Shown piece by piece: positions 1 to 57,467 of a DNA stretch of 64,000 nucleotides. Where the stretch lies: the IMG/VR virus record IMGVR_UViG_3300045988_005753, one strand, 5' to 3'. The position numbers and the translations under genes were made by a program. The notes under the pieces were generated by a model. That model did not search any database. It had not been told where the DNA came from and was given only the letters and a program-made list of their open reading frames with translations. The first letter of the stretch is position 1. Every line of letters begins with the position of its first letter. The stretch is from a virus. Taxonomy: Duplodnaviria; Heunggongvirae; Uroviricota; Caudoviricetes.

Positions 1-57
1 ACGGGGAGGGAATGACCTTCCCCACTAAATAAAGTCCTAAACTGGAGATTCTAAATT

Positions 58-343: not shown

Positions 344-370
344 CAGCCCCTATTTAAAGGGGCTTTTTTA
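344..370 (+). terminator. rho-independent terminator
   Basis: stem CAGCCCC/GGGGCT followed by TTTTT, directly after the 58-306 ORF. Confidence 0.6.
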
Positions 371-1900
371 CGTCTATGTGATAGCCTCTCTCAAAGACTT
401 ATACAATCCCTTTCCCTTTCCTTTCTAGAATCTTATCAGACCTTAAAAGCAATAACTCTATAGTCTACTCTATAGCCTTTTATCAAATCAACTTAAATAT
501 AAGCCCATAACCCGAAAGGGAAGGGCAACCATTAAAACGCTCTATAAAGCTCTATAACAGCCTTATCAACCTAACTTAAGCAATCATATTAACCCACTCT
601 AAAAAGCCCTTTATAGAGCTTCCCAGAGCCTTAAAAGAATCTTATAAGGTGTAAGCTTTATTATCTCGTTAGCTATCTTGTGAATATCTAAAAAGGGCTT
701 GTTAGTGTCTTAAAAGTATGTTATAGGAGCTTAAAAGTAGCTTAAAAGTTACGTAAATGCTAGCCCCCTTAACATCTTCTTAACAATTTCTTAACAATCC
801 CTACATAGTTATGCTTGTTAGAGACTTGTTAGCCCCTTGTTAAATCTCTGTTAAGACCATGTAAAATCCTTGTAAGAGTCTTTGGCATAGCCTTAAAAGC
901 TTCTGTAAAGCCCTATAAAGAGCTATCCATACAGTTGAGGGGTAGATACTAGGAAGAGGCTTAAAAGGGGCTATACAGAGCTATAGAGAGCTTTTAAGAG
1001 GCATGTTTAAGGAATCACTAAGAGGGAAAGGGAACGATAAGAAAAGAGTAGTGACCATGTTAATAGCTTGTTAAAAAGATTAAACACTTGTTAGAAACTT
1101 GTTAATTATCTTAACAAAATAACTCTTTAAAATTAACTTGTTAGCTCTTGTTAATCATCTGTTAAGATTCTGTAAAGCCCTATCAAATCTTGTTAGAAAA
1201 CTGTTAAGCCCTTGTTAGTTCTGTTAAGAATCTGTTAAGACCTTTGAAGAGTTGTTAAGAAGATGTGAGAACTGTTAAGGGATTGTTAAGGATATTTTAA
1301 AATTTTGCAAAGTACTTGTAAGGGAGCTGTTAAGGGCTACCAAGCAGATATACATCCTAATCAGATATTTTTCAGTTCCTTCAAAGACCCTAAAAAATGA
1401 CTTGATAGCCCTATTTTATAAAAATTTTAAAAATCTGAATAATTACCTAGACAGTCTTTTAAAAAATACAGGTAGAAACAGGCTTATAAGATACCTTGTT
1501 AGTACCGTGTTAGACCTTGTGAGATAAGGTCTGTGAAGATATTCCTGTTAAGTTTGTTAAAACAGTCTATATAGAGGCTTAGTAGTACCTAGTGAACACC
1601 TATAGAGGGTATCATAGCTTACCTAGAGATTAAGAGGTGTATAGGAGCTTCTAAGAGGGTGTAGAGGGATGGTTAAGGTGATTGTATAGGTTGTTAAGAA
1701 GGCTTGTTAGAGGGCTATTTAGAAGGGTTATACAGAGGGCTATTAAGACCACTAGATAGTTACTAAGATACTATATAGTACTATATAACTATATAGAGAG
1801 TAAGATTAAGAAGGTTGTTAAGAAGGATAGATATTTTATTCACATATGATGGTGACCCAGAGGTTGGGACAACCGATAAAATTTTATAAAAAATTAAAAA
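370..1900. repeat. non-coding repeat-rich region; array of TTGTTAAG/CTGTTAAG/CTTGTTAG octamers at about 9-12 bp spacing (densest 1060-1330), plus CTTAAAAG and CTATAAAG motifs
   Basis: no ORF of 60 aa or more on either strand; dozens of direct octamer copies and their reverse complements (CTTAACAA near 778-800) read directly. Confidence 0.75.
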
Positions 1901-1931
1901 GCCCCCAATTAAGGAGGCTCTTAAGATATTT

Positions 1932-2480
1932 TTAAATCAGTGTTTCCAGAACTGTTTTTAGTGATGACTTGGTTGTCTGATAAAAATGAGTAAAGCCGTT
2001 GTTGTTATCAAATACCTGCATCATGATATCATCTCCCTTGATTGGGTACACTCGGATATCATAGTGAAAACCATTAAAGACACAAGAGCCATTACAGAAT
2101 GCACTAAAGTCATCCACTGAGATATACTCTTCATGTCCTGTGATTTTTATACAGATACCTTTACTCGGTCTCTTAGGATTAATATCTTCCATCACAGACA
2201 TATTCTGTCCACCAAGAGATACCATAGTGACCACTTTACGGTTCTTCTGTCTAAAGTACATCTTAACTTTCTGTAAAGTGTCTTCATAGAACGGATAAGA
2301 CTTCTCTACAAAGATTCCTTCAAGTGGCTCTTTACCATTTTCAACTTCTCTGTTATGCCGTACTGCAAAGATAATTTGTTCGAACCAGTCAAGATTTTCT
2401 TCGGAGAGTGCTTCCCGAACATCACTCCAATCAAGGACTAGGTAGTTACCTTCAACTTCTTTTAAGTTATCTTTTTCCAT
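1932..2480 (-). CDS. hypothetical protein
   Basis: track ORF 1932-2525 starts on TTG; the first in-frame ATG at 2480 avoids overlap with the upstream gene. Confidence 0.45.
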   Translation of the reverse strand: MEKDNLKEVEGNYLVLDWSDVREALSEENLDWFEQIIFAVRHNREVENGKEPLEGIFVEKSYPFYEDTLQKVKMYFRQKNRKVVTMVSLGGQNMSVMEDINPKRPSKGICIKITGHEEYISVDDFSAFCNGSCVFNGFHYDIRVYPIKGDDIMMQVFDNNNGFTHFYQTTKSSLKTVLETLI

Positions 2481-2493
2481 ATCTATCACACCG

Positions 2494-2958
2494 TTATCGT
2501 AAAACTTGGTAAGCTGGTACTGCAAACTTGTTGCTATTGTTCCTAATAAGGTCTTCTTCTGTTACTAAGAATGTAATCCCACATAAGTGCGTATGGTGGC
2601 TGTCATACTCGAATATTTTAAGTAAGTATTTACCATCATGATAAACAGATTCTACTACACCTTTTGCAACAATCTTTCCAGTCTTGAAGTCTTTAAGAGG
2701 GTATGTATTACCAACTTTAGGGACTGTTTTCACTTCAGGTTCTTTTAGCTTCTCACTAGCTTCTACATCACCTAGTAAGTTAGAACTTTCAAAAGCTACG
2801 TGTTTCATATATGCTTCTGAACATTCCCAGATAAAACAATGTACAAGAACCTTAGCAGCATGTCTTGAGCAATTCAACTCATCACAGATTTCTTTGTACA
2901 TTTCATCTTTAGTTGAATTGGTAAGCATTGCTTTTCGAACTGTTTCTTTAATTTTCAT
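2494..2958 (-). CDS. hypothetical protein
   Basis: ATG start with GGAGAG RBS upstream. Confidence 0.55.
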   Translation of the reverse strand: MKIKETVRKAMLTNSTKDEMYKEICDELNCSRHAAKVLVHCFIWECSEAYMKHVAFESSNLLGDVEASEKLKEPEVKTVPKVGNTYPLKDFKTGKIVAKGVVESVYHDGKYLLKIFEYDSHHTHLCGITFLVTEEDLIRNNSNKFAVPAYQVLR

Positions 2959-3376
2959 AAGCTCTCCGAATAACCCTATTAAGCATCTCTAAAGTCAGCT
3001 TTCCAGATTCTAAATGTGGCACAATAAGTTTTAAAGCTTTTTCAACATCATGCACAACATCTATTATACCTTCTGCATAGGCTTCTACAAGGATATCTTT
3101 TACATTTTGTGATTTACCTTTTTGTGGTATCACTAGACGCATATCAAACTTATTTGCTTGAGGATGGTTCTTACCTTGCCAATAACCGTCTTTGTTAAAG
3201 CTGATGTAGTCACCGTGGTAAAAGTGTACACCATTAGCTTTAAACTTCTCCAGCACAAGGCATTGAATTGGGTATTCAGTATTCCACTCCCTGACTCCTA
3301 TAACCTTCACTGTTGCGATGTACTCCTGTGTTTTTGCATCTATGATGTCAAGTTCTTGACCAGCTATGATTTGCAT
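2948..3376 (-). CDS. hypothetical protein
   Basis: ATG start; operon-like packing with neighbours. Confidence 0.5.
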   Translation of the reverse strand: MQIIAGQELDIIDAKTQEYIATVKVIGVREWNTEYPIQCLVLEKFKANGVHFYHGDYISFNKDGYWQGKNHPQANKFDMRLVIPQKGKSQNVKDILVEAYAEGIIDVVHDVEKALKLIVPHLESGKLTLEMLNRVIRRAYEN

Positions 3377-3429
3377 ATTCGCTACCTTCTAAGTTTCTAC
3401 AAAGGGGCTATCAAGTAACCCCTAAGTTA

Positions 3430-3654
3430 TTACTCAGACTTTTCAGTCTTCTTATCGGATTTCTTACTAGTCTTCTTCTCAGCTTTCTGCTCAGGTTCCT
3501 TCTCAGGAGTTGCCTTGATAACCATATCAAGAAGCTCTGATAAGTCACTCTTCAGCAAAGTAACAGGCTGCTCGTTGTAGAAGTTTTTGTCAAGATAAAC
3601 TTTAAACTCTTCTATAGAAGGAAATCCAAAAATTGGTACAGGTGTCTTAATCAT
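3430..3654 (-). CDS. small lysine-rich hypothetical protein
   Basis: ATG start with GGAGAG RBS; KK-rich C-terminus. Confidence 0.5.
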   Translation of the reverse strand: MIKTPVPIFGFPSIEEFKVYLDKNFYNEQPVTLLKSDLSELLDMVIKATPEKEPEQKAEKKTSKKSDKKTEKSE

Positions 3655-10183: not shown

Positions 10184-10215
10184 TGTTGACAAAGTACTTG
10201 ACAAGGTGTAGGCTT
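10184..10215 (+). promoter_or_regulatory. conserved tandem TTGACAA element (GTTGACAAnnnACTTGACAAGGTGT) in a divergent intergenic region
   Basis: a near-identical element recurs at 51719-51746 in the second divergent intergenic region. Confidence 0.5.
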
Positions 10216-10335
10216 ATAAATACTTAGAAGATAACTTAAAAGGTTCCTCTAAAAAGGCTATTTAAACAGATATCTTTCTGGATATCTATCTTTTATCTTA
10301 AAAGCCTTTTAAGAGGTCTTATAAGAGGCATACCA

Positions 10336-10707
10336 ATGAAAAACAGAACAAACAAAGGCCAGTTTAAAAAAGGCCAGTCTGGAAACCCATCTGGAAGACC
10401 AAAAGGCTCACGTAACAAAAGCTCTCTCGTAAAAGCTCAACTGACCATTGATAATTCTGCTGAGTTTGCTGCAAAGTTGTTTGAAGCAATTGTTACAAGG
10501 GACGCTGCTAAGCTTGCAGAGTTCGGTTTGACGACTGACGATGTAAACCTGAAGTCGATGATGGAGGCTGGTAAAACTATCATGACTCACTCAGCAGGTG
10601 AGATGAAAGCGATTGCAGCAGACACTAAGAAGACCCCTGATAACGGTGGTCAGTCTCAGACAGATAACAAACCAACGTTCTCTGCTGTTGCAACGCTTAA
10701 AAAATAA
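10336..10707 (+). CDS. hypothetical protein with N-terminal GNPSGRPKG motif (possible DNA-binding, terminase-small-subunit-like)
   Basis: ATG with AGAGG RBS; basic glycine-rich N-terminus. Confidence 0.5.
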   Translation: MKNRTNKGQFKKGQSGNPSGRPKGSRNKSSLVKAQLTIDNSAEFAAKLFEAIVTRDAAKLAEFGLTTDDVNLKSMMEAGKTIMTHSAGEMKAIAADTKKTPDNGGQSQTDNKPTFSAVATLKK

Positions 10708-10789: not shown

Positions 10790-12205
10790 ATGAGCGAATT
10801 ATTTAAACATGCGCACCTTCATGCAGGTCGAACTGAAAATGGTGCTGTAAACCATACTTCATCAATGTCTGCTCTTGTAGACTTTTACAAAGCTGCTGGT
10901 TCAAGCCGTAGCAATGTAGAAATCTTACCAGACCTGTTCTACAAAGCTTTGCGTGAGGATGTTGATGTTGCAGTTCGTATTTTACTGCATATGCGAGATG
11001 TACGAGAAGGTATGGGTGAGCGTAAAGCCTTCAGAACTGTTTTGCTTCAAGCGATTGAAGATAAAGTTTTAGAGCCTACGCAGGTTCTTCGCATTATGGA
11101 TAAGATTGCAGAGCTTGGTCGTTTTGATGACTTCAAAATCTTTGTAGGTACTCGTTTCGAGACAGATGCCTTCAAGCATTTAGAAGCAGCATTACTAGAC
11201 CCTGCAACAGCAGGTTTGGCAGCTAAGTGGTTACCACGAGTCAAACCACGTCATAAGCAGTTTGTAAAACGTTTCTGCAAGTTTGCAAACTTGAGTGAGA
11301 AAGAGTACCGCACACTGCTGTCTGCACTATCTGATACAGTTGAACAAAAAATATCTGCTAATGAGTTTGGTAAGATTGACTACAGTAAGATTCCTTCACT
11401 TGCTGCTGCACGTTACCAAAAGCTCTTTAACCGTAAAGATGGAGAACGCTACAAAGCTTACATTGAGTCCTTATCAAAGGGCGAGACTAAGATTAATGCT
11501 GGTGCTGTTTATCCATATGATGTGATTAAATCTATCAAGTATGGTAATGCAGATGTTGCTAATGAGCAGTGGAAAGCACTACCAAACTGGATGGCAGAAG
11601 GTGAAAACATCCTGTGTATGACTGATGTTTCAAGCTCAATGTCTTGGGTGAATCTTGGTTCAATCACTGCCCTTGATATTGGTGTATCCCTTGCCTTGTA
11701 TGTAGCAGAACGCAATACAGGTTGTTTTAAGAATGAGTTAATGGTTTATTCAACAAACCCTCATTTCATCGAACTGAGTGGTGATTTACGAAACCGTCAT
11801 CGTCAGGTAATGCGTCATGTTGAATATGGTTCAACTAACTTACAAGCAGCTTTTGACCGCATTCTTGAAATAGGTAAGAGAAACAACTTGACTCAGGAAG
11901 ATATGCCAAGTAAGCTTATCATCTTCTCTGATATGGAGTTCAATCAGGTTGACGGTGCAAATGGTCATACAAACTTTGAAGCAATTCAGAGTAAGTACAA
12001 AAAAGCTGGATATGAGATGCCACAATTGGTATTCTGGTACTTAGCAAACCGTAATGGTACTTGCGAAGTGTCTGTTAAGGATAACGGTGTAGCAATGGTA
12101 TCTGGTTTCTCTCCAGCCACTTTAAAAGCTCTGCTTGGTGGTGAGAAGTTTGACCCAATCAGCGTAATGCTCAAAGCAGTAATGATTGACCGCTATATCT
12201 GGTAA
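10790..12205 (+). CDS. vWA-domain protein, candidate Ro60/TROVE-like RNA-binding protein
   Basis: 471 aa; helical N-terminal part then a DxSxS MIDAS-type motif (DVSSSMS) typical of vWA folds; sits directly upstream of the tRNA array that contains Y-RNA-like elements. Confidence 0.55.
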   Translation: MSELFKHAHLHAGRTENGAVNHTSSMSALVDFYKAAGSSRSNVEILPDLFYKALREDVDVAVRILLHMRDVREGMGERKAFRTVLLQAIEDKVLEPTQVLRIMDKIAELGRFDDFKIFVGTRFETDAFKHLEAALLDPATAGLAAKWLPRVKPRHKQFVKRFCKFANLSEKEYRTLLSALSDTVEQKISANEFGKIDYSKIPSLAAARYQKLFNRKDGERYKAYIESLSKGETKINAGAVYPYDVIKSIKYGNADVANEQWKALPNWMAEGENILCMTDVSSSMSWVNLGSITALDIGVSLALYVAERNTGCFKNELMVYSTNPHFIELSGDLRNRHRQVMRHVEYGSTNLQAAFDRILEIGKRNNLTQEDMPSKLIIFSDMEFNQVDGANGHTNFEAIQSKYKKAGYEMPQLVFWYLANRNGTCEVSVKDNGVAMVSGFSPATLKALLGGEKFDPISVMLKAVMIDRYIW

Positions 12206-12223
12206 AAAGTTTTAAAAAGGGTA

Positions 12224-12252
12224 TTGACAATGTGTTTAATACCCTTTAATAT
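12224..12252 (+). promoter_or_regulatory. sigma70-type promoter upstream of the tRNA array
   Basis: TTGACA, 17-bp spacer, TAATAT. Confidence 0.55.
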
Positions 12253-12370
12253 GTTCTACATAGAAACGAAATGAGAGCTTTTCTAAGATACTGAAAAATA
12301 TTTTAAAAAAGTTCTTGACAACCACTAAAAAATAATGTTAAAGTAGTTACATAGAGTTTGAAAAGTTTAT

Positions 12371-12447
12371 CTCTGTTTAGCTCAGCTTGGTAGAGCGTTC
12401 CGTTTGGGGCGGTAAGGCCGGAGGTTCAAGTCCTCCAACAGAGACCA
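12371..12447 (+). tRNA. tRNA-Pro (UGG)
   Basis: cloverleaf folded by eye: acceptor CTCTGTT/AACAGAG, T-arm GGAGG-TTCAAGT-CCTCC, encoded CCA. Confidence 0.75.
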
Positions 12448-12454
12448 AATTAAT

Positions 12455-12532
12455 GTTCCAGTAGACAAAATGGTAAAGTCACCACTCTTTCAAAGTGGAT
12501 ATTTGAGGGTTCAAATCCCTTCTGGAACGCCA
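12455..12532 (+). tRNA. tRNA-Glu (UUC)
   Basis: acceptor GTTCCAG/CTGGAAC, anticodon stem CCACT/AGTGG, loop CTTTCAA, CCA. Confidence 0.75.
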
Positions 12533-12537
12533 GTTTT

Positions 12538-12618
12538 GACAGAAGACCAATTACAGCAAACTTAATCTTATTCATCTGAAGGTAAATCGGACAAAGAAGA
12601 GATTTGGTCTGGTCATTA
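12538..12618 (+). ncRNA. stem-bounded structured element A (ACAGAAGACCAATTACAGCAA ... TTGGTCTGG)
   Basis: 5' AGACCAA pairs with 3' TTGGTCT; compensatory changes relative to elements B and C. Confidence 0.4.
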
Positions 12619-12623
12619 AGAAT

Positions 12624-12700
12624 TGCGGGTATAGAGAAAGGGCGTCTCACATGTCTCATTAGCATGGTATCGGCAGGTTCGACTCCTGCACCCGCCTCCA
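12624..12700 (+). tRNA. tRNA-Met-like (CAU), irregular acceptor with a 1:72 mismatch
   Basis: T-arm GCAGG-TTCGACT-CCTGC, anticodon stem CATGT/GCATG, loop CTCATTA, CCA; 5' boundary uncertain. Confidence 0.5.
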
Positions 12701-12705
12701 AATTT

Positions 12706-12776
12706 ACAGAAGACCGTTTACAGCAACATTTATTAAATTTTTAGCGGAAAAATTGAAAGATACGGTCTGGTAATAC
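12706..12776 (+). ncRNA. stem-bounded structured element B (ACAGAAGACCGTTTACAGCAA ... ACGGTCTGG)
   Basis: 5' AGACCGT pairs with 3' ACGGTCT; internal AATTTTT-AGCGG-AAAAATT hairpin. Confidence 0.4.
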
Positions 12777-12783
12777 TAAACAT

Positions 12784-12860
12784 GGTTAGGAAGCACATAA
12801 GGTATGTGCGGTCGCCTGTTAAGCGAATGGCACAGGGTTCGAATCCCTGACTAACCGCCA
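12784..12860 (+). tRNA. tRNA-Asn (GUU)
   Basis: acceptor GGTTAGG/ACTAACC, D-stem GCAC/GTGC, loop CTGTTAA, T-arm CAGGG-TTCGAAT-CCCTG, CCA. Confidence 0.75.
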
Positions 12861-12929
12861 AATTTAGGAGAGAAGCGATTGCTCACCGATTTGTAAGGTG
12901 CAAGTCCTTAGCCTGAATAGAAATTAAAT

Positions 12930-13017
12930 GTGTCGTTATCCCGTAGATGGTAGCGGTGGGGACTGTAAATCCCTTGTCATTGAGACTCGGTAGGTTCGAC
13001 TCCTACACGGCACACCA
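12930..13017 (+). tRNA. tRNA-Tyr (GUA), long variable arm
   Basis: 88 nt; acceptor GTGTCGT/ACGGCAC, loop CTGTAAA, T-arm GTAGG-TTCGACT-CCTAC, CCA. Confidence 0.7.
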
Positions 13018-13022
13018 ATAAA

Positions 13023-13100
13023 GGTTATGTAGTTTAATCTGGTTAAAATACTCCCCTGTCACGGGAGATGATGAGGGTTCAAATCCCTTCGTAACCGCCA
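13023..13100 (+). tRNA. tRNA-Asp (GUC)
   Basis: acceptor GGTTATG/CGTAACC, anticodon stem CTCCC/GGGAG, loop CTGTCAC, CCA. Confidence 0.75.
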
Positions 13101-13124
13101 ATTTTGAGAGGGCTATTTAGCCCC

Positions 13125-13160
13125 TCCCTTAAAGAGTTCTTACGAGTATTCTTTAAAGGA
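13125..13160 (+). other. conserved hairpin (stem CCTTAAAGA/TCTTTAAAGG, loop containing TTCTTACGAG)
   Basis: same hairpin family recurs at 13974-14005 and 16466-16495, each time in a spacer of the tRNA array. Confidence 0.45.
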
Positions 13161-13161
13161 G

Positions 13162-13240
13162 CAGAAGGCCAAATACAGCAAGAATGTATGAAATTTCAAG
13201 CCAATTTAATTTTGAAAATTTAAAACTTGGTCTGGCTCAA
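13162..13240 (+). ncRNA. stem-bounded structured element D (AGAAGGCCAAATACAGCAAG ... TTGGTCTGG)
   Basis: 5' GGCCAA pairs with 3' TTGGTC (one G-U); same ACAGCAA core as A, B and C. Confidence 0.35.
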
Positions 13241-13247
13241 CAAATTT

Positions 13248-13385
13248 ACAGAAGACCGTTTACAGCAAAACTTAAACAATCTATTTCTCCGGTAAAGAAA
13301 AGGCGAAGGTTCGATTCCTTCACTCGGCAGATGTCGAGTTGGTGTAATGGTAGCACTTAAGATGATAAACAACGGTCTGGTAATT
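13248..13385 (+). ncRNA. candidate Y-RNA / YrlA-like tRNA mimic: closing stem around a circularly permuted tRNA-like module
   Basis: order read directly: 5' stem AGACCGTT, T-arm GAAGG-TTCGATT-CCTTC, acceptor 3' strand ACTCGGC, 4-nt loop, acceptor 5' strand GTCGAGT, D-arm GTGT-AATGGTA-GCAC, 3' stem AACGGTCT. Confidence 0.5.
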
Positions 13386-13529
13386 ATCTTTGTAGATAAG
13401 TTATTAAGCTTACCTGTGAGTATGCGACCACAAAGGGTGAATGGGTAAATTCTAGATTTAAACCCAAAAAGGCACATCGCTACAGACCTTAAGCAAGTCT
13501 GGGTAGCTTATCTACAAAGATAATTTAAT

Positions 13530-13605
13530 GGAAGTGTAGCAGAATGGTGATGCGGCAGACTTTTAATCTGACAGGCGATGGGTTCGAATCCCTCCACTTC
13601 TACCA
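13530..13605 (+). tRNA. tRNA-Lys (UUU)
   Basis: acceptor GGAAGTG/CACTTCT, loop CTTTTAA, T-loop TTCGAAT, CCA. Confidence 0.7.
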
Positions 13606-13609
13606 ATAT

Positions 13610-13686
13610 GGTTCAGTCGCAGATAAGGTAATGCAAGGGTCTCATAAGCCCTATGAATGTGGGTTCGATTCCCATCTGAACCTCCA
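13610..13686 (+). tRNA. tRNA-Met or tRNA-Ile2 (CAU)
   Basis: acceptor GGTTCAG/CTGAACC, anticodon stem AGGGT/GCCCT, loop CTCATAA, CCA. Confidence 0.7.
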
Positions 13687-13687
13687 A

Positions 13688-13763
13688 GCTGGTATAGTTA
13701 AGAAGGTTATAACACTCCCCTGATAAGGGAACATCGGTGGTTCGATTCCACCTACCAGTACCA
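13688..13763 (+). tRNA. tRNA-Ile (GAU)
   Basis: acceptor GCTGGTA/TACCAGT, D-stem GTTA/TAAC, loop CTGATAA, T-arm GGTGG-TTCGATT-CCACC, CCA. Confidence 0.7.
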
Positions 13764-13778
13764 ATTTCAATAAAGTTG

Positions 13779-13807
13779 TTGACATTGAGATGTGACTACT
13801 TTATAGT
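13779..13807 (+). promoter_or_regulatory. internal sigma70-type promoter within the tRNA array
   Basis: TTGACA, 17-bp spacer, TATAGT. Confidence 0.5.
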
Positions 13808-13973
13808 AACCTTAGTTTTCGTTGCGTAGCGTCTATTTTGCAAATTTAAAATAAATGCAAACGACAATGTTTTTCTGGCAGTAGCTTGATAGGCTAAACA
13901 CCAGTGAGGTCTTCCAATCCCTCATCAAAGAATTTGGCGTACTCGCCCACGGTATGATTAATAAGGTGGGCAT

Positions 13974-14005
13974 CTTTAAGGACTTTCTAAGAGAGTCTTT
14001 AAAGA
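13974..14005 (+). other. conserved hairpin (stem CTTTAAGGA/TCTTTAAAG, loop CTTTCTAAGAGAG)
   Basis: member of the TTCT(T)A(C/A)GAGAG-loop hairpin family. Confidence 0.45.
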
Positions 14006-18001: not shown

Positions 18002-18022
18002 TTCTATTTGCGGAGGCGCTTA

Positions 18023-19624
18023 ATGGACTTAAATGCTGTTAAGCAGAAGCGAGTGGAAGATGTTAGGAAAGTCCTAGCTGGAGAGTTGGGGCTTTCTGAT
18101 GAAGTAAAAGAAATTATTAAATCATTCGGTAAAGACCCCTCTAAATTCCTTCCAACTCAAATTCTGACTTTATTAAGATACACACCAGACCAAGTTCGCC
18201 TTATCTTTAAATTGATGACTGATAAGAATTATGTAGCCCCTCAGCCGGGTTCTCAAGAGGTCTTTTTAAATACTAATGCTGACTTGGTTCTTTATGGTGG
18301 TGCTGCTGGTGCTGGTAAAACTGCTGCATTGTTAATGGACTCTCTAAGATTTATTGAAGACCCTAACTATAATGCTGTATATTTCCGTCGAAATACAACA
18401 CAGCTACAAGGTGGTTTATGGCCTGCTGCAAAGAAACTATTTGGTAAGTTTGGTGGGATTCCTCACGAGCAGAAAATGACTATCACATTCCCTTCTGGGG
18501 CAACTATCAAGTTTACCTACCTAGAACTTGAAAAGCACGCTGAAGGTCATCAGGGTATTGAGTATTCAGCCATTTACTTTGACGAAGGTACACACTTCTC
18601 CGCTTCACAGATTTCATACCTACAAACCCGTCTACGTTCTGGTGCTGAAGGTGATTCATACATGAAGATTTCCATGAACCCAGACAGAGACCACTTTATT
18701 TATGATTGGGTGGAGCCATTCTTAGATGAAGAAGGCTATCCAGACCCTGAAAAGTGTGGTCGTATTCGTTGGTATGTAATGAATGATGGTGTGATGGTTT
18801 CTGATTGGGAGAGAGACAAGATTCTTGAAATGTTCCCTCTTGAGATTCCTCAAACATACACCTTTATCTCTGGTACGATTGATGATAACCCAATCCTTGA
18901 CTTCTTAGAGCCTAAGTACCGTGGTAAGTTGGAAAACAACACCCCTGTAAACGTTGCAAGACTTCGTTTCGGTAACTGGAAGGCTCGTGCAGAAGGTTCA
19001 AACTATTGGCAAAGACAATGGTGTGAAATTGTTGATTCACTCCCAGAAGATGTATTTGATGTTAGAGCATGGGACTTAGCAGCAACTTTACCATCTGAGG
19101 TTAACCCTAATCCAGACTGGACAGCAGGTGTTAAGATGGGTAAATCTAAAAAAGACGGTTGCTATTATATCATTGATGTAGTAAGATTTAGAGATAGACC
19201 CTCTGGAGTCGAAACACAAATTAATTTGACTGCTGAAAGTGACGGTAAGCGAACTGGTATTTTTATCCCTCAAGACCCAGGCGCTGCTGGTAAATCCTAC
19301 GCAACATCCCTCATCAGGAAACTTGCCGAGAAAGGTTATCGAGCAAGAGCCAAACCAACAAATAAAGATAAAGTTACCCGCTTTGCGGGATTTTCTGCTG
19401 CTTCTGAAGCTGGACTTGTAAAAGTCTTGAGAGGTAGTTGGAATGAAGCTTACTTTCAAGAACTTGAAGGCTTTTGTGGTGATGGTAAAACTAAAGATGA
19501 CCAAGTGGATGCTACCAGTGATGCTTTCAACAGTCTTAACGAAGTTAAATTATTCAAGCCACCATCAATGGGTGCTCACACAGATTTAGTGAGAGGAAAC
19601 CCATATGAGGGGCTTAGACGTTGA
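18023..19624 (+). CDS. terminase large subunit
   Basis: Walker A LVLYGGAAGAGKTAAL near the N-terminus; track ORF starts on TTG at 18008, ATG at 18023 has a GGAGG RBS. Confidence 0.85.
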   Translation: MDLNAVKQKRVEDVRKVLAGELGLSDEVKEIIKSFGKDPSKFLPTQILTLLRYTPDQVRLIFKLMTDKNYVAPQPGSQEVFLNTNADLVLYGGAAGAGKTAALLMDSLRFIEDPNYNAVYFRRNTTQLQGGLWPAAKKLFGKFGGIPHEQKMTITFPSGATIKFTYLELEKHAEGHQGIEYSAIYFDEGTHFSASQISYLQTRLRSGAEGDSYMKISMNPDRDHFIYDWVEPFLDEEGYPDPEKCGRIRWYVMNDGVMVSDWERDKILEMFPLEIPQTYTFISGTIDDNPILDFLEPKYRGKLENNTPVNVARLRFGNWKARAEGSNYWQRQWCEIVDSLPEDVFDVRAWDLAATLPSEVNPNPDWTAGVKMGKSKKDGCYYIIDVVRFRDRPSGVETQINLTAESDGKRTGIFIPQDPGAAGKSYATSLIRKLAEKGYRARAKPTNKDKVTRFAGFSAASEAGLVKVLRGSWNEAYFQELEGFCGDGKTKDDQVDATSDAFNSLNEVKLFKPPSMGAHTDLVRGNPYEGLRR

Positions 19625-29280: not shown

Positions 29281-34664
<5,384 letters not shown>

Positions 34665-38471: not shown

Positions 38472-38480
38472 TTTCTTTAC

Positions 38481-38501
38481 AGGGGCTTTATAGCCCCTTT
38501 T
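38481..38501 (+). terminator. weak terminator-like hairpin between the two fibre genes
   Basis: AGGGGCT-TTAT-AGCCCCT followed by TTT. Confidence 0.4.
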
Positions 38502-38517
38502 AAGAGGAAAATTCATA

Positions 38518-51718: not shown

Positions 51719-51746
51719 AAGTTGACAATACACTTGACAAGGTGTT
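51719..51746 (+). promoter_or_regulatory. second copy of the conserved tandem TTGACAA element
   Basis: GTTGACAATACACTTGACAAGGTGT, near-identical to 10184-10215. Confidence 0.5.
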
Positions 51747-51918
51747 AATCTTTGCGAAGTGGGTTTTTACTTAAAAGGTTACTTAACAGTTTAACTATAC
51801 AGATACTTTAGAACTCTTAAAAGATTATTTAATAGCTTTTAAAAAGCTTTAAAGTATAACGTATAGAATACGTTAAGATAAAAGATTAAAACTTAATAGT
51901 TACTTAAAAGAGGCTTAC

Positions 51919-56135: not shown

Positions 56136-56391
56136 TAGCTATAAAAGAGAGGGGTTCACACCCTTCTTTGAAGAAAAAAGTTTAAATAAATTTCAGGAAG
56201 AGTGTTTGACAAAGGTTGATAGGTTCTATAGAATGCTCTACATGAAATGTGATGGAGGTGTTGAGGTAGAAGAAAAGTTCCATCACAGTATTATCACAGT
56301 CACTATTACTATACCTGAACATAATATTGGTTGGCTGTTTATAATGAAAGAAAATGTGTTTGAATATCAAGTATATCGGAGAATATCATGA
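56098..56391 (+). CDS. doubtful ORF overlapping the primase-helicase 3' end
   Basis: contains a candidate promoter inside; kept at low confidence. Confidence 0.25.
   Translation: MRMQMTARSKLSDSYKREGFTPFFEEKSLNKFQEECLTKVDRFYRMLYMKCDGGVEVEEKFHHSIITVTITIPEHNIGWLFIMKENVFEYQVYRRIS
56206..56234 (+). promoter_or_regulatory. sigma70-type promoter
   Basis: TTGACA, 17-bp spacer, TAGAAT. Confidence 0.5.
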
Positions 56392-56537
56392 AACACTCTA
56401 AAGCATTTGAAAAAGTTTTTGGGGATTCCTTAAAAGCCACTGCTGGAAAACCAGCAAAATACTATGAAGAAAAACGTGTAAGAACTGGAAAAACTGCACG
56501 TAAAGCAGCTTCTAAAGATAAGCACAACTTCCAGTAA
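56388..56537 (+). CDS. small basic protein (49 aa, below the ORF-track cutoff)
   Basis: ATG with GGAGA RBS; reads MKHSKAFEKVFGDSLKATAGKPAKYYEEKRVRTGKTARKAASKDKHNFQ. Confidence 0.4.
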   Translation: MKHSKAFEKVFGDSLKATAGKPAKYYEEKRVRTGKTARKAASKDKHNFQ

Positions 56538-56544
56538 TTAGTAT

Positions 56545-56573
56545 TTGACAATAGAGTATCAACAAATTAGAAT
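56545..56573 (+). promoter_or_regulatory. sigma70-type promoter upstream of the SSB-like gene
   Basis: TTGACA, 17-bp spacer, TAGAAT. Confidence 0.55.
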
Positions 56574-56609
56574 TGGTACTCTTCATAAATTGAGATAGAG
56601 GTTTAAATA

Positions 56610-57467
56610 ATGTCTAAAGTTGTTAAAATGAAAGCTCCGGTAGAGAAGTACAACGGTACTGAACGTCAAACTCTGCGTTACCTTCTGAAAGATGTCTGGT
56701 TTTATTACCTGAACACTTCACCACGTCCGGGAAAAGGTAAGTCTATTGATAAGAAATTTCCAGGCAAAGATTGTAACTACAGCGTATCAATTCTGGCAGA
56801 AGACGGTAACAAACTGTTTAAAGAGTTTACTAAGTCTAAGAAAAATCCAGAAGGCTGGGATAAAGTCACTACTGAAGCAGTTGATGCAGATGACTTCGAA
56901 GAGAAGTTTGGTTGCAAACCACCATTTGAAGCAGATACTTACTACATCTTGAAAGTAAGTCGTGCAGCAGCTTATAAAGATGGTGCTGTGTGGACAGCTA
57001 AACAGTCATTCCCTGTAATGCTGATTGAAGAAGTAAATGGTAAGCGTGTAGCTGTTAAGCAGCCGATGAAGAAAATCAAAGCTCAAGCATCTGATAAACA
57101 TGAAGATGACAAGAACTATGATGTAATTCATCCAGATATTGCAGTTGGTAACGGTTCTTTTGGTAGTGTGATTCTTTCTACTCACTTCTACACTTTTGAG
57201 AACAATGTCTTGACAAAGCCTATTCAGGAACAGTTTATCATTGATACTCTTGTACCTTACACTGGTGGTAACGGTGCTAATGGTGAGCCTGAACTGGATG
57301 AAGATGAATTGGCTATGCTTGGTCTTGATGGTGTTGAAGATAACGGTGAAATCACTGAAGAAGACGCAACAGACCATAAATCTTCGAATGATTCTGATGA
57401 TGGTGACGATGAAGACTTGCCAGACCCAGATGACGAAGAAGATGAAGACTTCGATACAGAAGACTAA
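56610..57467 (+). CDS. single-stranded DNA-binding protein-like (acidic C-terminal tail)
   Basis: C-terminus DDGDDEDLPDPDDEEDEDFDTED resembles the acidic tails of T7 gp2.5-type SSBs; lies within the replication module. Confidence 0.45.
   Translation: MSKVVKMKAPVEKYNGTERQTLRYLLKDVWFYYLNTSPRPGKGKSIDKKFPGKDCNYSVSILAEDGNKLFKEFTKSKKNPEGWDKVTTEAVDADDFEEKFGCKPPFEADTYYILKVSRAAAYKDGAVWTAKQSFPVMLIEEVNGKRVAVKQPMKKIKAQASDKHEDDKNYDVIHPDIAVGNGSFGSVILSTHFYTFENNVLTKPIQEQFIIDTLVPYTGGNGANGEPELDEDELAMLGLDGVEDNGEITEEDATDHKSSNDSDDGDDEDLPDPDDEEDEDFDTED

Follow-up and report, generated by a model that had tools for sequence, protein, structure and literature searches.

What is the function of a 1.5-kb stretch of DNA that lies between two converging gene clusters of a tailed phage, holds no genes and is filled with short repeats spaced about one helical turn apart? 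The question is raised by positions 370–1900 of a 64-kb segment of a Caudoviricetes genome (IMG/VR record IMGVR_UViG_3300045988_005753), which is called the window in what follows. Positions 300–2000 match 257 phage records at 80–93% identity, nearly all of them Felixounavirus, and place the window in that genus, the Felix O1-like myovirus group of Salmonella, E. coli and Shigella. The Felix O1 counterpart of 300–2000 is 12300–13996. A preliminary description had proposed an iteron array and offered four functions: a replication origin, a packaging recognition region, a partition-like site or a regulator-binding array. Packaging or end processing fits best, because the physical genome ends of relatives can be placed inside the region. 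The region is probably, if far from certainly, a genome-end junction with a direct terminal repeat (DTR), in which the phased array would act as a platform that positions the end cuts and serves packaging.

Genome ends of relatives and the terminal repeat

The strongest evidence comes from complete records of close relatives. The Ro111lw record (MH571750) opens inside the region, its first 613 bases equal its last 613, and the repeat maps to 763–1341 of the window. PhageTerm read analysis assigned this phage a 613-bp non-permuted DTR, 'similar to T7' (PMC6454146). NBSal004 (MN994503), from an independent source, carries a repeat of 694 bp at each end, delimited by the same two boundaries as in Ro111lw; this repeat begins GCCCCCTTAACAT and finishes ...TTAAGGGCTACC. 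In a third relative, Pr103Blw, PhageTerm gave a DTR of 581 bp (PMC8303462), and the records of other relatives open at the equivalent of window position 763 or about 1340. The DTR is present once in the window, as expected, because assembly collapses its two copies. Since the exact end repeats of relatives map to 763–1341, the region is read as a concatemer junction, composed of a terminator, a 392-bp left flank, the DTR, a 555-bp right flank and a second terminator. By the same sequence-based reading, the left flank would be the unique DNA just inside the right-end repeat of the virion, and the right flank that just inside the left-end repeat. The elements of the junction are as follows (a slash marks an end position).

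345–370, plus strand: terminator-like hairpin (345–364; AGCCCCTATTTAAAGGGGCT) with a T-run (TTTTTT), at the end of the rightward early-gene cluster.
371–762 (392 bp), no strand assigned: left non-coding flank of the DTR, with CTTAAAAG, CTATAAAG and CTCTATAG units in mixed orientation.
750–775, no strand assigned: left DTR boundary, ...ACGTAAATGCTA/GCCCCCTTAACAT, with the end between 762 and 763; the Ro111lw and NBSal004 records start here.
763–1341, plus strand: DTR of 579 bp, mapped from the end repeats of relatives.
768–798, minus strand: three reversed units (CTTAACA, three copies, 11-bp period) at the left DTR end, forming an inverted repeat with the right DTR end.
814–1340, plus strand: main same-strand array of CTTGTTAG, CTGTTAAG, CTTGTTAA and CTTAAAAG units, densest at 1057–1340.
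1296–1354, plus strand: right DTR boundary, TTTTGCAAAG...CTGTTAAGGGCTACC/AAGCAGATATACA, with the end between 1341 and 1342, where records of relatives end.
1342–1896 (555 bp), no strand assigned: right non-coding flank, with an AT-rich stretch at about 1405–1470 and further units with G/A-rich spacers.
1897–1922, minus strand: terminator-like hairpin at the end of the leftward gene cluster.
End-site words: AAGCAGATATACA and GCCCCCTTAACA.

The two boundaries, GCTA/GCCCCCTTAACAT and GGGCTACC/AAGCAGATATACA (the latter also written TGTTAAGGGCTACC/AAGCAGATATACA), do not vary in 23 genomes of three genera, and over four genera of the Ounavirinae they are almost constant. Felixounavirus, Moogle and SUSP1 share them with essentially no variation, and in Erwinia phage phiEa104 they are still recognizable. 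The right boundary (1296–1354) is the most deeply conserved element: TTTTGCAA...CT/AAGCAGGTATACA (with AAGCAGRTATACA) is retained even in the far more distant Yersinia phage P778. The ends are also related to each other. The reverse complement of the left end, ATGTTAAGGGGGC/TAGC, compares with CTGTTAAGGGCTACC/AAGC at the right end. Because the DTR opens with three reversed units and nearly all others point rightward, the DTR ends form inverted repeats, which are 30–38 nt long (I1, I4, I6 and I15–I18). Seen from outside, the ends each sit 5–7 bp past a TGTTAAGGG that points outward. Such near-symmetric ends suggest recognition of the two boundaries by a single protein that binds them in opposite orientations.

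While the boundaries stay fixed, the distance between them varies in steps. In 24 genomes it takes the values 569/570, 579–582, 591/592, 601–603, 613, 623, 638, 658 and 694 bp, so that inferred DTR lengths change by roughly 11 bp at a time; in phiEa104 the distance is 439 bp. With the window as reference, insertions and deletions are concentrated at two sizes, 11 and 22 bp, with 20 cases of each. From the quantized lengths and the unit-sized indels it follows that whole units are gained and lost between unchanged boundaries, which is why DTR length differs between isolates.

Two further records bear on the ends. The two ends of the REP10 record share only 77 bp, which was considered as a DTR and set aside as an assembly overlap. 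In the record of Erwinia phage Prophecy an end repeat is absent. An 87.6%-identical copy of the Felix O1-type region also occurs at 135434–137023 of GU169904.1, the 147-kb record of Staphylococcus phage SA1, which looks like a chimeric or contaminated assembly.

The phased array and its conservation

The region is gene-free, as the preliminary description had claimed in noting that no open reading frame (ORF) reached 60 amino acids: the longest ORFs within 370–1900 encode 31, 41 and 33. Its neighbours do end convergently, at 58–306 on the plus strand and 1932–2480 on the minus strand, each with a terminator-like hairpin behind it. GC content is 34%, compared with 39%. An Rfam scan of 1–2600 (E <= 1) found no RNA family; the lone match, to Phe_leader, was sub-threshold and fell on the terminator.

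The whole of 370–1900 is filled by an array of CTNNNNAG-type 8-mers. The three words first noticed are strongly enriched there, with 24 exact copies in all: TTGTTAAG four times on the plus and three times on the minus strand, CTGTTAAG eight times and CTTGTTAG nine times, both on the plus strand only. From the rest of the 64-kb window, 0.06–0.15 copies of each word are expected (0.06 for CTTGTTAG, 0.15 for CTGTTAAG). The enrichment thus stands, but the unit is broader than these words. It consists of an 8-bp frame, CT-N4-AG, and a variable spacer of 2–4 nt, and its variants include CTTGTTAG, CTGTTAAG, CTTGTTAA, CTTAAAAG, CTRTAAAG, CTATAGAG, CTTATAAG and others. A looser pattern, CT[ATG][ATG][AT][AT]A[AG], has 52 plus-strand and 27 minus-strand matches over the three segments of the region. 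On the plus strand its density in these segments is 27–45 per kb, against 4.1 per kb elsewhere. The DTR contains 26 plus-strand but 6 minus-strand units (45 versus 10 per kb), and further units occur in both flanks; in the left flank the densities are 28 (plus) and 31 (minus) per kb.

Start-to-start distances between units are mostly 11 bp, with 9, 10 and 12 bp and the multiples 20–22 and 33 bp also represented. Ten consecutive units occupy the 105 bp at 1137–1242, with a mean period of 10.5 bp. The spacing of 9–12 bp and the density maximum at 1060–1330 that had been reported are in agreement with these values. Autocorrelation has maxima at lags of 10–12, 20–22 and 31–32 bp (z up to 8.6 against 39 control windows). 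A sliding 300-bp score for 11-bp periodicity rises to 0.20 in the region; the background is 0.007 +/- 0.022, and the score stays at or below 0.10 in the rest of the 64 kb. Over the whole 1.5 kb, the Fourier spectrum has no single sharp period. Phasing is local and slips over this distance, and power is therefore spread over 9.7–12 bp. As units recur about once per helical turn, the sites are presented on one face of the DNA. Weak 11-bp periodicity (0.08–0.10) is seen at 12051–12500, 29301–29600 and 56351–56650; TTGACA promoter-like sites occur in the first and third of these places, and the second resembles coding sequence.

Conservation of the region resembles that of coding DNA. Among 20 close relatives it is 0.91 conserved, against 0.88 at third codon positions of the neighbouring gene. 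The right flank is 0.925–0.99 conserved in 50-bp tiles among the same number of relatives and 0.975 identical to Felix O1, and the left flank has 0.80–0.81 identity to Moogle and SUSP1. A syntenic gene-free block in Mooglevirus and Suspvirus retains 78–79% nucleotide identity over about 1.5 kb, while the adjacent protein is 47–54% identical. Compared with Moogle genome-wide, the region lies at the 53rd percentile of 1.5-kb windows, like an average coding segment; of the DNA just to its right (2001–3500), 0–33% is matched in Moogle. Conservation is also uneven within the array. Units were defined in the window and scored on an independent pair of genomes, Moogle and SUSP1, where identity was 0.929 at core positions (n = 336) and 0.818 at other positions (n = 1195; Fisher p = 3e-7). 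Together with the 11-bp indel steps and the quantized DTR lengths, this comparison shows that the array is under selection.

The architecture extends further than the alignable sequence. Erwinia phage phiEa104 (Kolesnikvirus) has a 1.43-kb gene-free block with 11-bp periodicity between convergent genes, in which TGTTAAGA occurs 12 times and a different second word, CTTCTAA[GA], nine times; BLAST aligns only the right DTR boundary with the window. In P778, a distant unclassified relative, a gene-poor stretch (PP693300, 86600–87790; about 1–1190 of locus L049) shows weak 11–12-bp periodicity and a few copies of CTGTTAAGA and TGTAAAGT, and also holds the conserved AAGCAGGTATACA boundary element. 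These features suggest the same junction architecture in P778. Of the genes beside the region, the left one (58–306) is mosaic among close relatives, with 66–100% nucleotide identity, while the adjacent non-coding region has about 92%.

A candidate binding protein and the alternatives

An array of this kind would need a reader. The best candidate is a small protein with a GNPSGRPKG motif, which the preliminary description had named, beside an HTH protein, for binding assays; it is encoded in the same window as the terminase expected to cut the ends.

10297–10325, plus strand: mini-array of CTTAAAAG, CTTTTAAG and CTTATAAG, between a promoter-like site and the DUF5681 start codon.
10336–10707, plus strand: DUF5681 protein, 123 amino acids, with N-terminal motif FKKGQSGNPSGRPKGSRNK; candidate small terminase and putative array binder.
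18008–19624, plus strand: large subunit of terminase (TerL; Terminase_6N/6C, phrog_979), the expected maker of the end cuts.

The evidence for DUF5681 as binder is circumstantial. The motif FKKGQSGNPSGRPKGSRNK is invariant across 29 diverse DUF5681 homologues and resembles an AT-hook. AT-hooks bind the minor groove of AT-rich DNA, and that of HMGA1 reads PRGRPKGSKNK; by analogy, the TTAA and TAAA cores of the units would be suitable AT-rich targets here. In four of six unrelated phage contexts the DUF5681 gene lies directly upstream of TerL and overlaps it. This is the usual position of a small terminase gene, and because of it the DUF5681 family may be a small terminase. In Felix O1 itself no small terminase could be found, according to the genome paper of 2010. 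The AlphaFold model of the protein has a disordered basic N-terminus (residues 1–27), three short helices and a long helix (72–99). No sequence match in the PDB and no named homologue were found for it.

A further link between the gene and the array is provided by mini-arrays, defined as runs of at least three phased CT-N4-AG units, of which none is expected in shuffled sequence. Outside the main region they occur at 10297–10325, 38475–38504 and 51770–51802, all intergenic. The first, in the DUF5681 leader, is retained in Moogle. In phiEa104 a three-unit array (CTTAAAAG, CTTTAAAG, CTGTAAAG) lies upstream of the promoter-like sites of the DUF5681 gene, and its CTTAAAAG and CTGTAAAG units differ from CTTCTAAG, the word of that phage's own left array. 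The P778 leader has a run of at least five units with a 12-bp period.

The following mechanism can be proposed. (i) An oligomeric phage protein would bind along the single DNA face offered by the phased CT-N4-AG units, which inside the DTR are mostly of the TGTTAAG type. (ii) This protein could be DUF5681, binding through its AT-hook-like arm, as the small terminase previously thought missing. (iii) Once bound, it would bend or wrap the junction. (iv) The large terminase would thereby be positioned to cut 5–7 bp outside the outward-pointing TGTTAAGGG unit at each boundary. (v) The DTR would then be duplicated during packaging, as T7-type phages duplicate their terminal repeat. A bolder version is held only tentatively and is rather unlikely to be right as a whole: DUF5681 would be an unrecognized class of small terminase, whose GNPSGRPKG arm reads DNA and which polymerizes along dozens of phased sites; the resulting nucleoprotein filament on the 1.5-kb junction would set both DTR cuts; and the mini-array in the protein's own leader would mediate autoregulation.

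Several observations weigh against a packaging platform read by DUF5681. The end positions in this phage are placed by homology to relatives. The array extends hundreds of base pairs past what a cut-site signal would need, and the cuts lie 12 and 14 nt from the TGTTAAG start and hence are not exactly symmetric. Here the DUF5681 gene precedes TerL by 7.3 kb, and a tRNA cluster intervenes. Its structural model is only moderate, with a predicted local distance difference test (pLDDT) score of 67.7, and comparison with solved folds gave no meaningful match (best E = 3.3). In unrelated phages and contigs with DUF5681, no phased array was found within 5 kb of the gene. To our knowledge, no function has been established for the short-repeat arrays of T7. 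Finally, the mini-arrays at 38475–38504 and 51770–51802 lie in intergenic regulatory DNA, the latter in a divergent promoter region, and point to a transcriptional or architectural role for which packaging is not required. Given this location, and a threefold enrichment of CTTAAAAG and CTRTAAAG outside the region, it may be a regulator or architectural protein that recognizes the units; packaging would then be either one role among several or a secondary one.

The last point leads to the main rival, which is unlikely but not negligible. The array may be a binding field for a regulator or an architectural protein (of the phage, or of the host nucleoid type) that silences, insulates or titrates transcription at the genome ends and a few promoters, its overlap with the DTR being secondary. 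Of the options in the preliminary description other than packaging, a regulator-binding array is the one that keeps some weight, because mini-arrays of array units occur at the three other intergenic sites. In the same direction point the retention of the leader array in P778, despite a DUF5681 protein only about 51% identical, and the terminators that bracket the region against inward transcription. Yet the TGTTAAG family, which dominates the DTR, is not enriched elsewhere (24 copies versus 16.6 +/- 3.9), and the orientation of units is tied to the DTR boundaries. A promoter scan of the region gave 10 sites against 7.3 +/- 2.6 expected, which is no excess, and no sign of an internal transcription unit. 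A replication origin and a partition site gained no support. That the region is or contains an origin, where a phage initiator would bind the repeats as iterons and the DNA would unwind at the AT-rich stretch (about 1405–1470), is improbable. Conserved, AT-rich, non-coding DNA with many direct repeats would fit an origin, as would the high conservation of the right flank, which has no obvious reason; T7 has secondary origins near both ends. The AT-rich stretch itself is not diagnostic of an unwinding element. No initiator or replication gene is adjacent: the adjoining genes belong to PHROG families of unknown function, and replication domains are absent from them. DnaA-like boxes are not enriched, with one (one mismatch) in the region and 18 window-wide against 20.5 expected. 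Some 50–80 units with 8-bp cores at 11-bp spacing are also unlike the typical three to eight iterons of 17–22 bp. GC skew, which had been suggested as a check, follows gene orientation only and is uninformative on this point.

Two further readings are less probable still. The array might have its role not in packaging but at the DNA ends once they have been ejected: a non-coding buffer or binding field could shield the end that enters first from exonucleases, or favour end-to-end annealing into concatemers. At each virion end, DTR and flank together make at least 950 bp of non-coding DNA, the authors of the PhageMaP study note that Felixounavirus Bas63 lacks a RecBCD inhibitor, and the drift of DTR length in unit steps is expected if repeats anneal or recombine out of register. 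A buffer, however, needs neither conserved 8-mers nor helical phasing, yet the cores are selectively conserved, and no Chi site occurs in the region; this reading has a slim chance at best. Least probable of all, to a degree that makes it hard to entertain, is a neutral minisatellite generated by slippage, for which the unit-sized indels and variable copy number would speak. It is opposed by coding-level conservation across three genera while adjacent genes diverge or are replaced, by the greater conservation of cores than of spacers, and by the recurrence of the same architecture in Erwinia phage phiEa104. Two other candidates were rejected. A pac site of the headful kind can be discarded, since the ends in relatives are not permuted but fixed at two conserved boundaries. 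A partition centromere was dismissed, as no partition ATPase or centromere-binding domains were found in the genes tested (two to the right and one to the left of the region); the lineage is, by its taxonomy, that of virulent myoviruses.

Known systems, significance and further observations

The junction is best compared with the concatemer junction of T7, its closest analogue, although this is a matter of resemblance and not of membership. Direct analysis of the T7 junction for repeats found 13 copies of CCTAAAG in and around the 160-bp DTR and none on the other strand, with a run at 13-bp spacing; the arrays at the T7 terminal repeat were reportedly named SRL and SRR by Dunn and Studier in 1983. 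In both phages a short DTR in a non-coding junction is filled and flanked by a same-strand word of 7–8 bp at near-helical spacing, and the words themselves are alike (CCTAAAG, CTTAAAG and CATAAAG in T7; CTTAAAAG and CTRTAAAG here). The differences are considerable. Phage lineage, terminase and portal types are unrelated, and the period is 13 bp in T7 but 10.5–11 bp here, with a DTR of 160 bp against 579 bp. The array here is about three to four times larger (1.5 kb, about 50–80 units), its dominant word is TGTTAAG, and its units are inverted at the two DTR boundaries.

Other systems offer partial parallels. At the R sites of lambda cosB and the pac boxes of SPP1 and SF6, short sites on one face of bent DNA beside the cut site are bound by oligomeric small terminase, and by analogy this mechanism is the one proposed here. 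Those systems, however, use two to four elements over about 100–200 bp, beside or inside the terminase genes, whereas here dozens of units cover 1.5 kb far from TerL, and two cut sites define a DTR. The parC site of plasmid R1, which is bound by ParR, has ten 11-bp direct repeats. Like operator arrays of the omega/MetJ type, it combines head-to-tail repeats of 11-bp period with a cooperative helical protein–DNA filament, which provides a physical model for the reading of a phased array. In contrast to these, the present array has no adjacent partition ATPase or ribbon-helix-helix gene and lies at the genome ends of a virulent phage. For T5, also a virulent coliphage, Davison is said to have described in 2015 a non-coding, repeat-rich zone at the end of the first-step-transfer DNA. 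This zone likewise is ORF-free over about 1.5–2 kb, rich in repeats and tied to a terminal repeat. It differs in lying inside a 10-kb repeat, in its link to injection arrest, and in its longer repeats, palindromes and DnaA boxes; repeats of the DnaA-box type are absent here.

Part of this picture is already in the literature: the short DTR of Felixounaviruses is stated on the basis of PhageTerm in two papers (PMC6454146, PMC8303462). No published description was found of the placement of the DTR in a conserved 1.5-kb gene-free block, of the helically phased CT-N4-AG array, of the invariant boundaries with inverted end units, of the variation of length in unit steps, or of a link between DUF5681 and the small terminase. 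The Felix O1 (2010) and wV8 (2009) genome papers mention neither the region nor the array, and in the PhageMaP paper on Felixounavirus Bas63, which used a gene-targeted library, no data on the region were found. In the records inspected the region carries no functional annotation. Those of Felix O1 and FO1a give only the flanking genes, that of phage finno has two short 'repeat_region' features in the region, and in none is anything entered there beyond isolated repeats and terminators or spurious small ORFs; genome ends and terminal repeat are unmarked.

Over 250 genomes of Felix O1-like phages have been deposited, and these phages are in wide use for typing, biocontrol and therapy directed at Salmonella and E. 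coli. Their records open at arbitrary points, and the two conserved end sequences supply a simple rule for orienting and annotating them. Known ends also allow genomes to be engineered without breaking the ends. What arrays of short repeats do at phage terminal repeats, those of T7 included, is an old question, for which these phages offer a tractable system: the array is large, helix-phased and conserved across genera, and has a named candidate binder. Should DUF5681 prove to be the small terminase, the protein missing from the Felix O1 paper of 2010 would be found, and a Pfam family so far without a function would acquire one.

Some further elements of the window were noted. An element of about 55 bp (window 1–55; hairpin ggggagggaatgaccttcccc plus the context of a ribosome-binding site) stands upstream of several small early genes in every relative, with two to four copies per relative locus (L001–L022); it probably belongs with the intergenic direct repeats listed in the Felix O1 paper. 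A promoter-like element with a tandem pair of -35-like sequences, TTGACA-N5-CTTGACAAGGTGT, is found at 10186–10212 and 51724–51750, at the heads of two major transcription units, and its Moogle counterpart is TTGACA-N6-CTTGACAACGTGT. The gene at 10790–12205 encodes a 471-amino-acid protein with DUF2828, DUF7788 and vWA-like matches, whose PHROGs family bears the name 'RNA-binding protein'; it lies just upstream of a stretch matching the tRNA cluster of Moogle. In the PhageMaP preprint, the Bas63 gene directly upstream of the tRNA genes is likened to Ro60.

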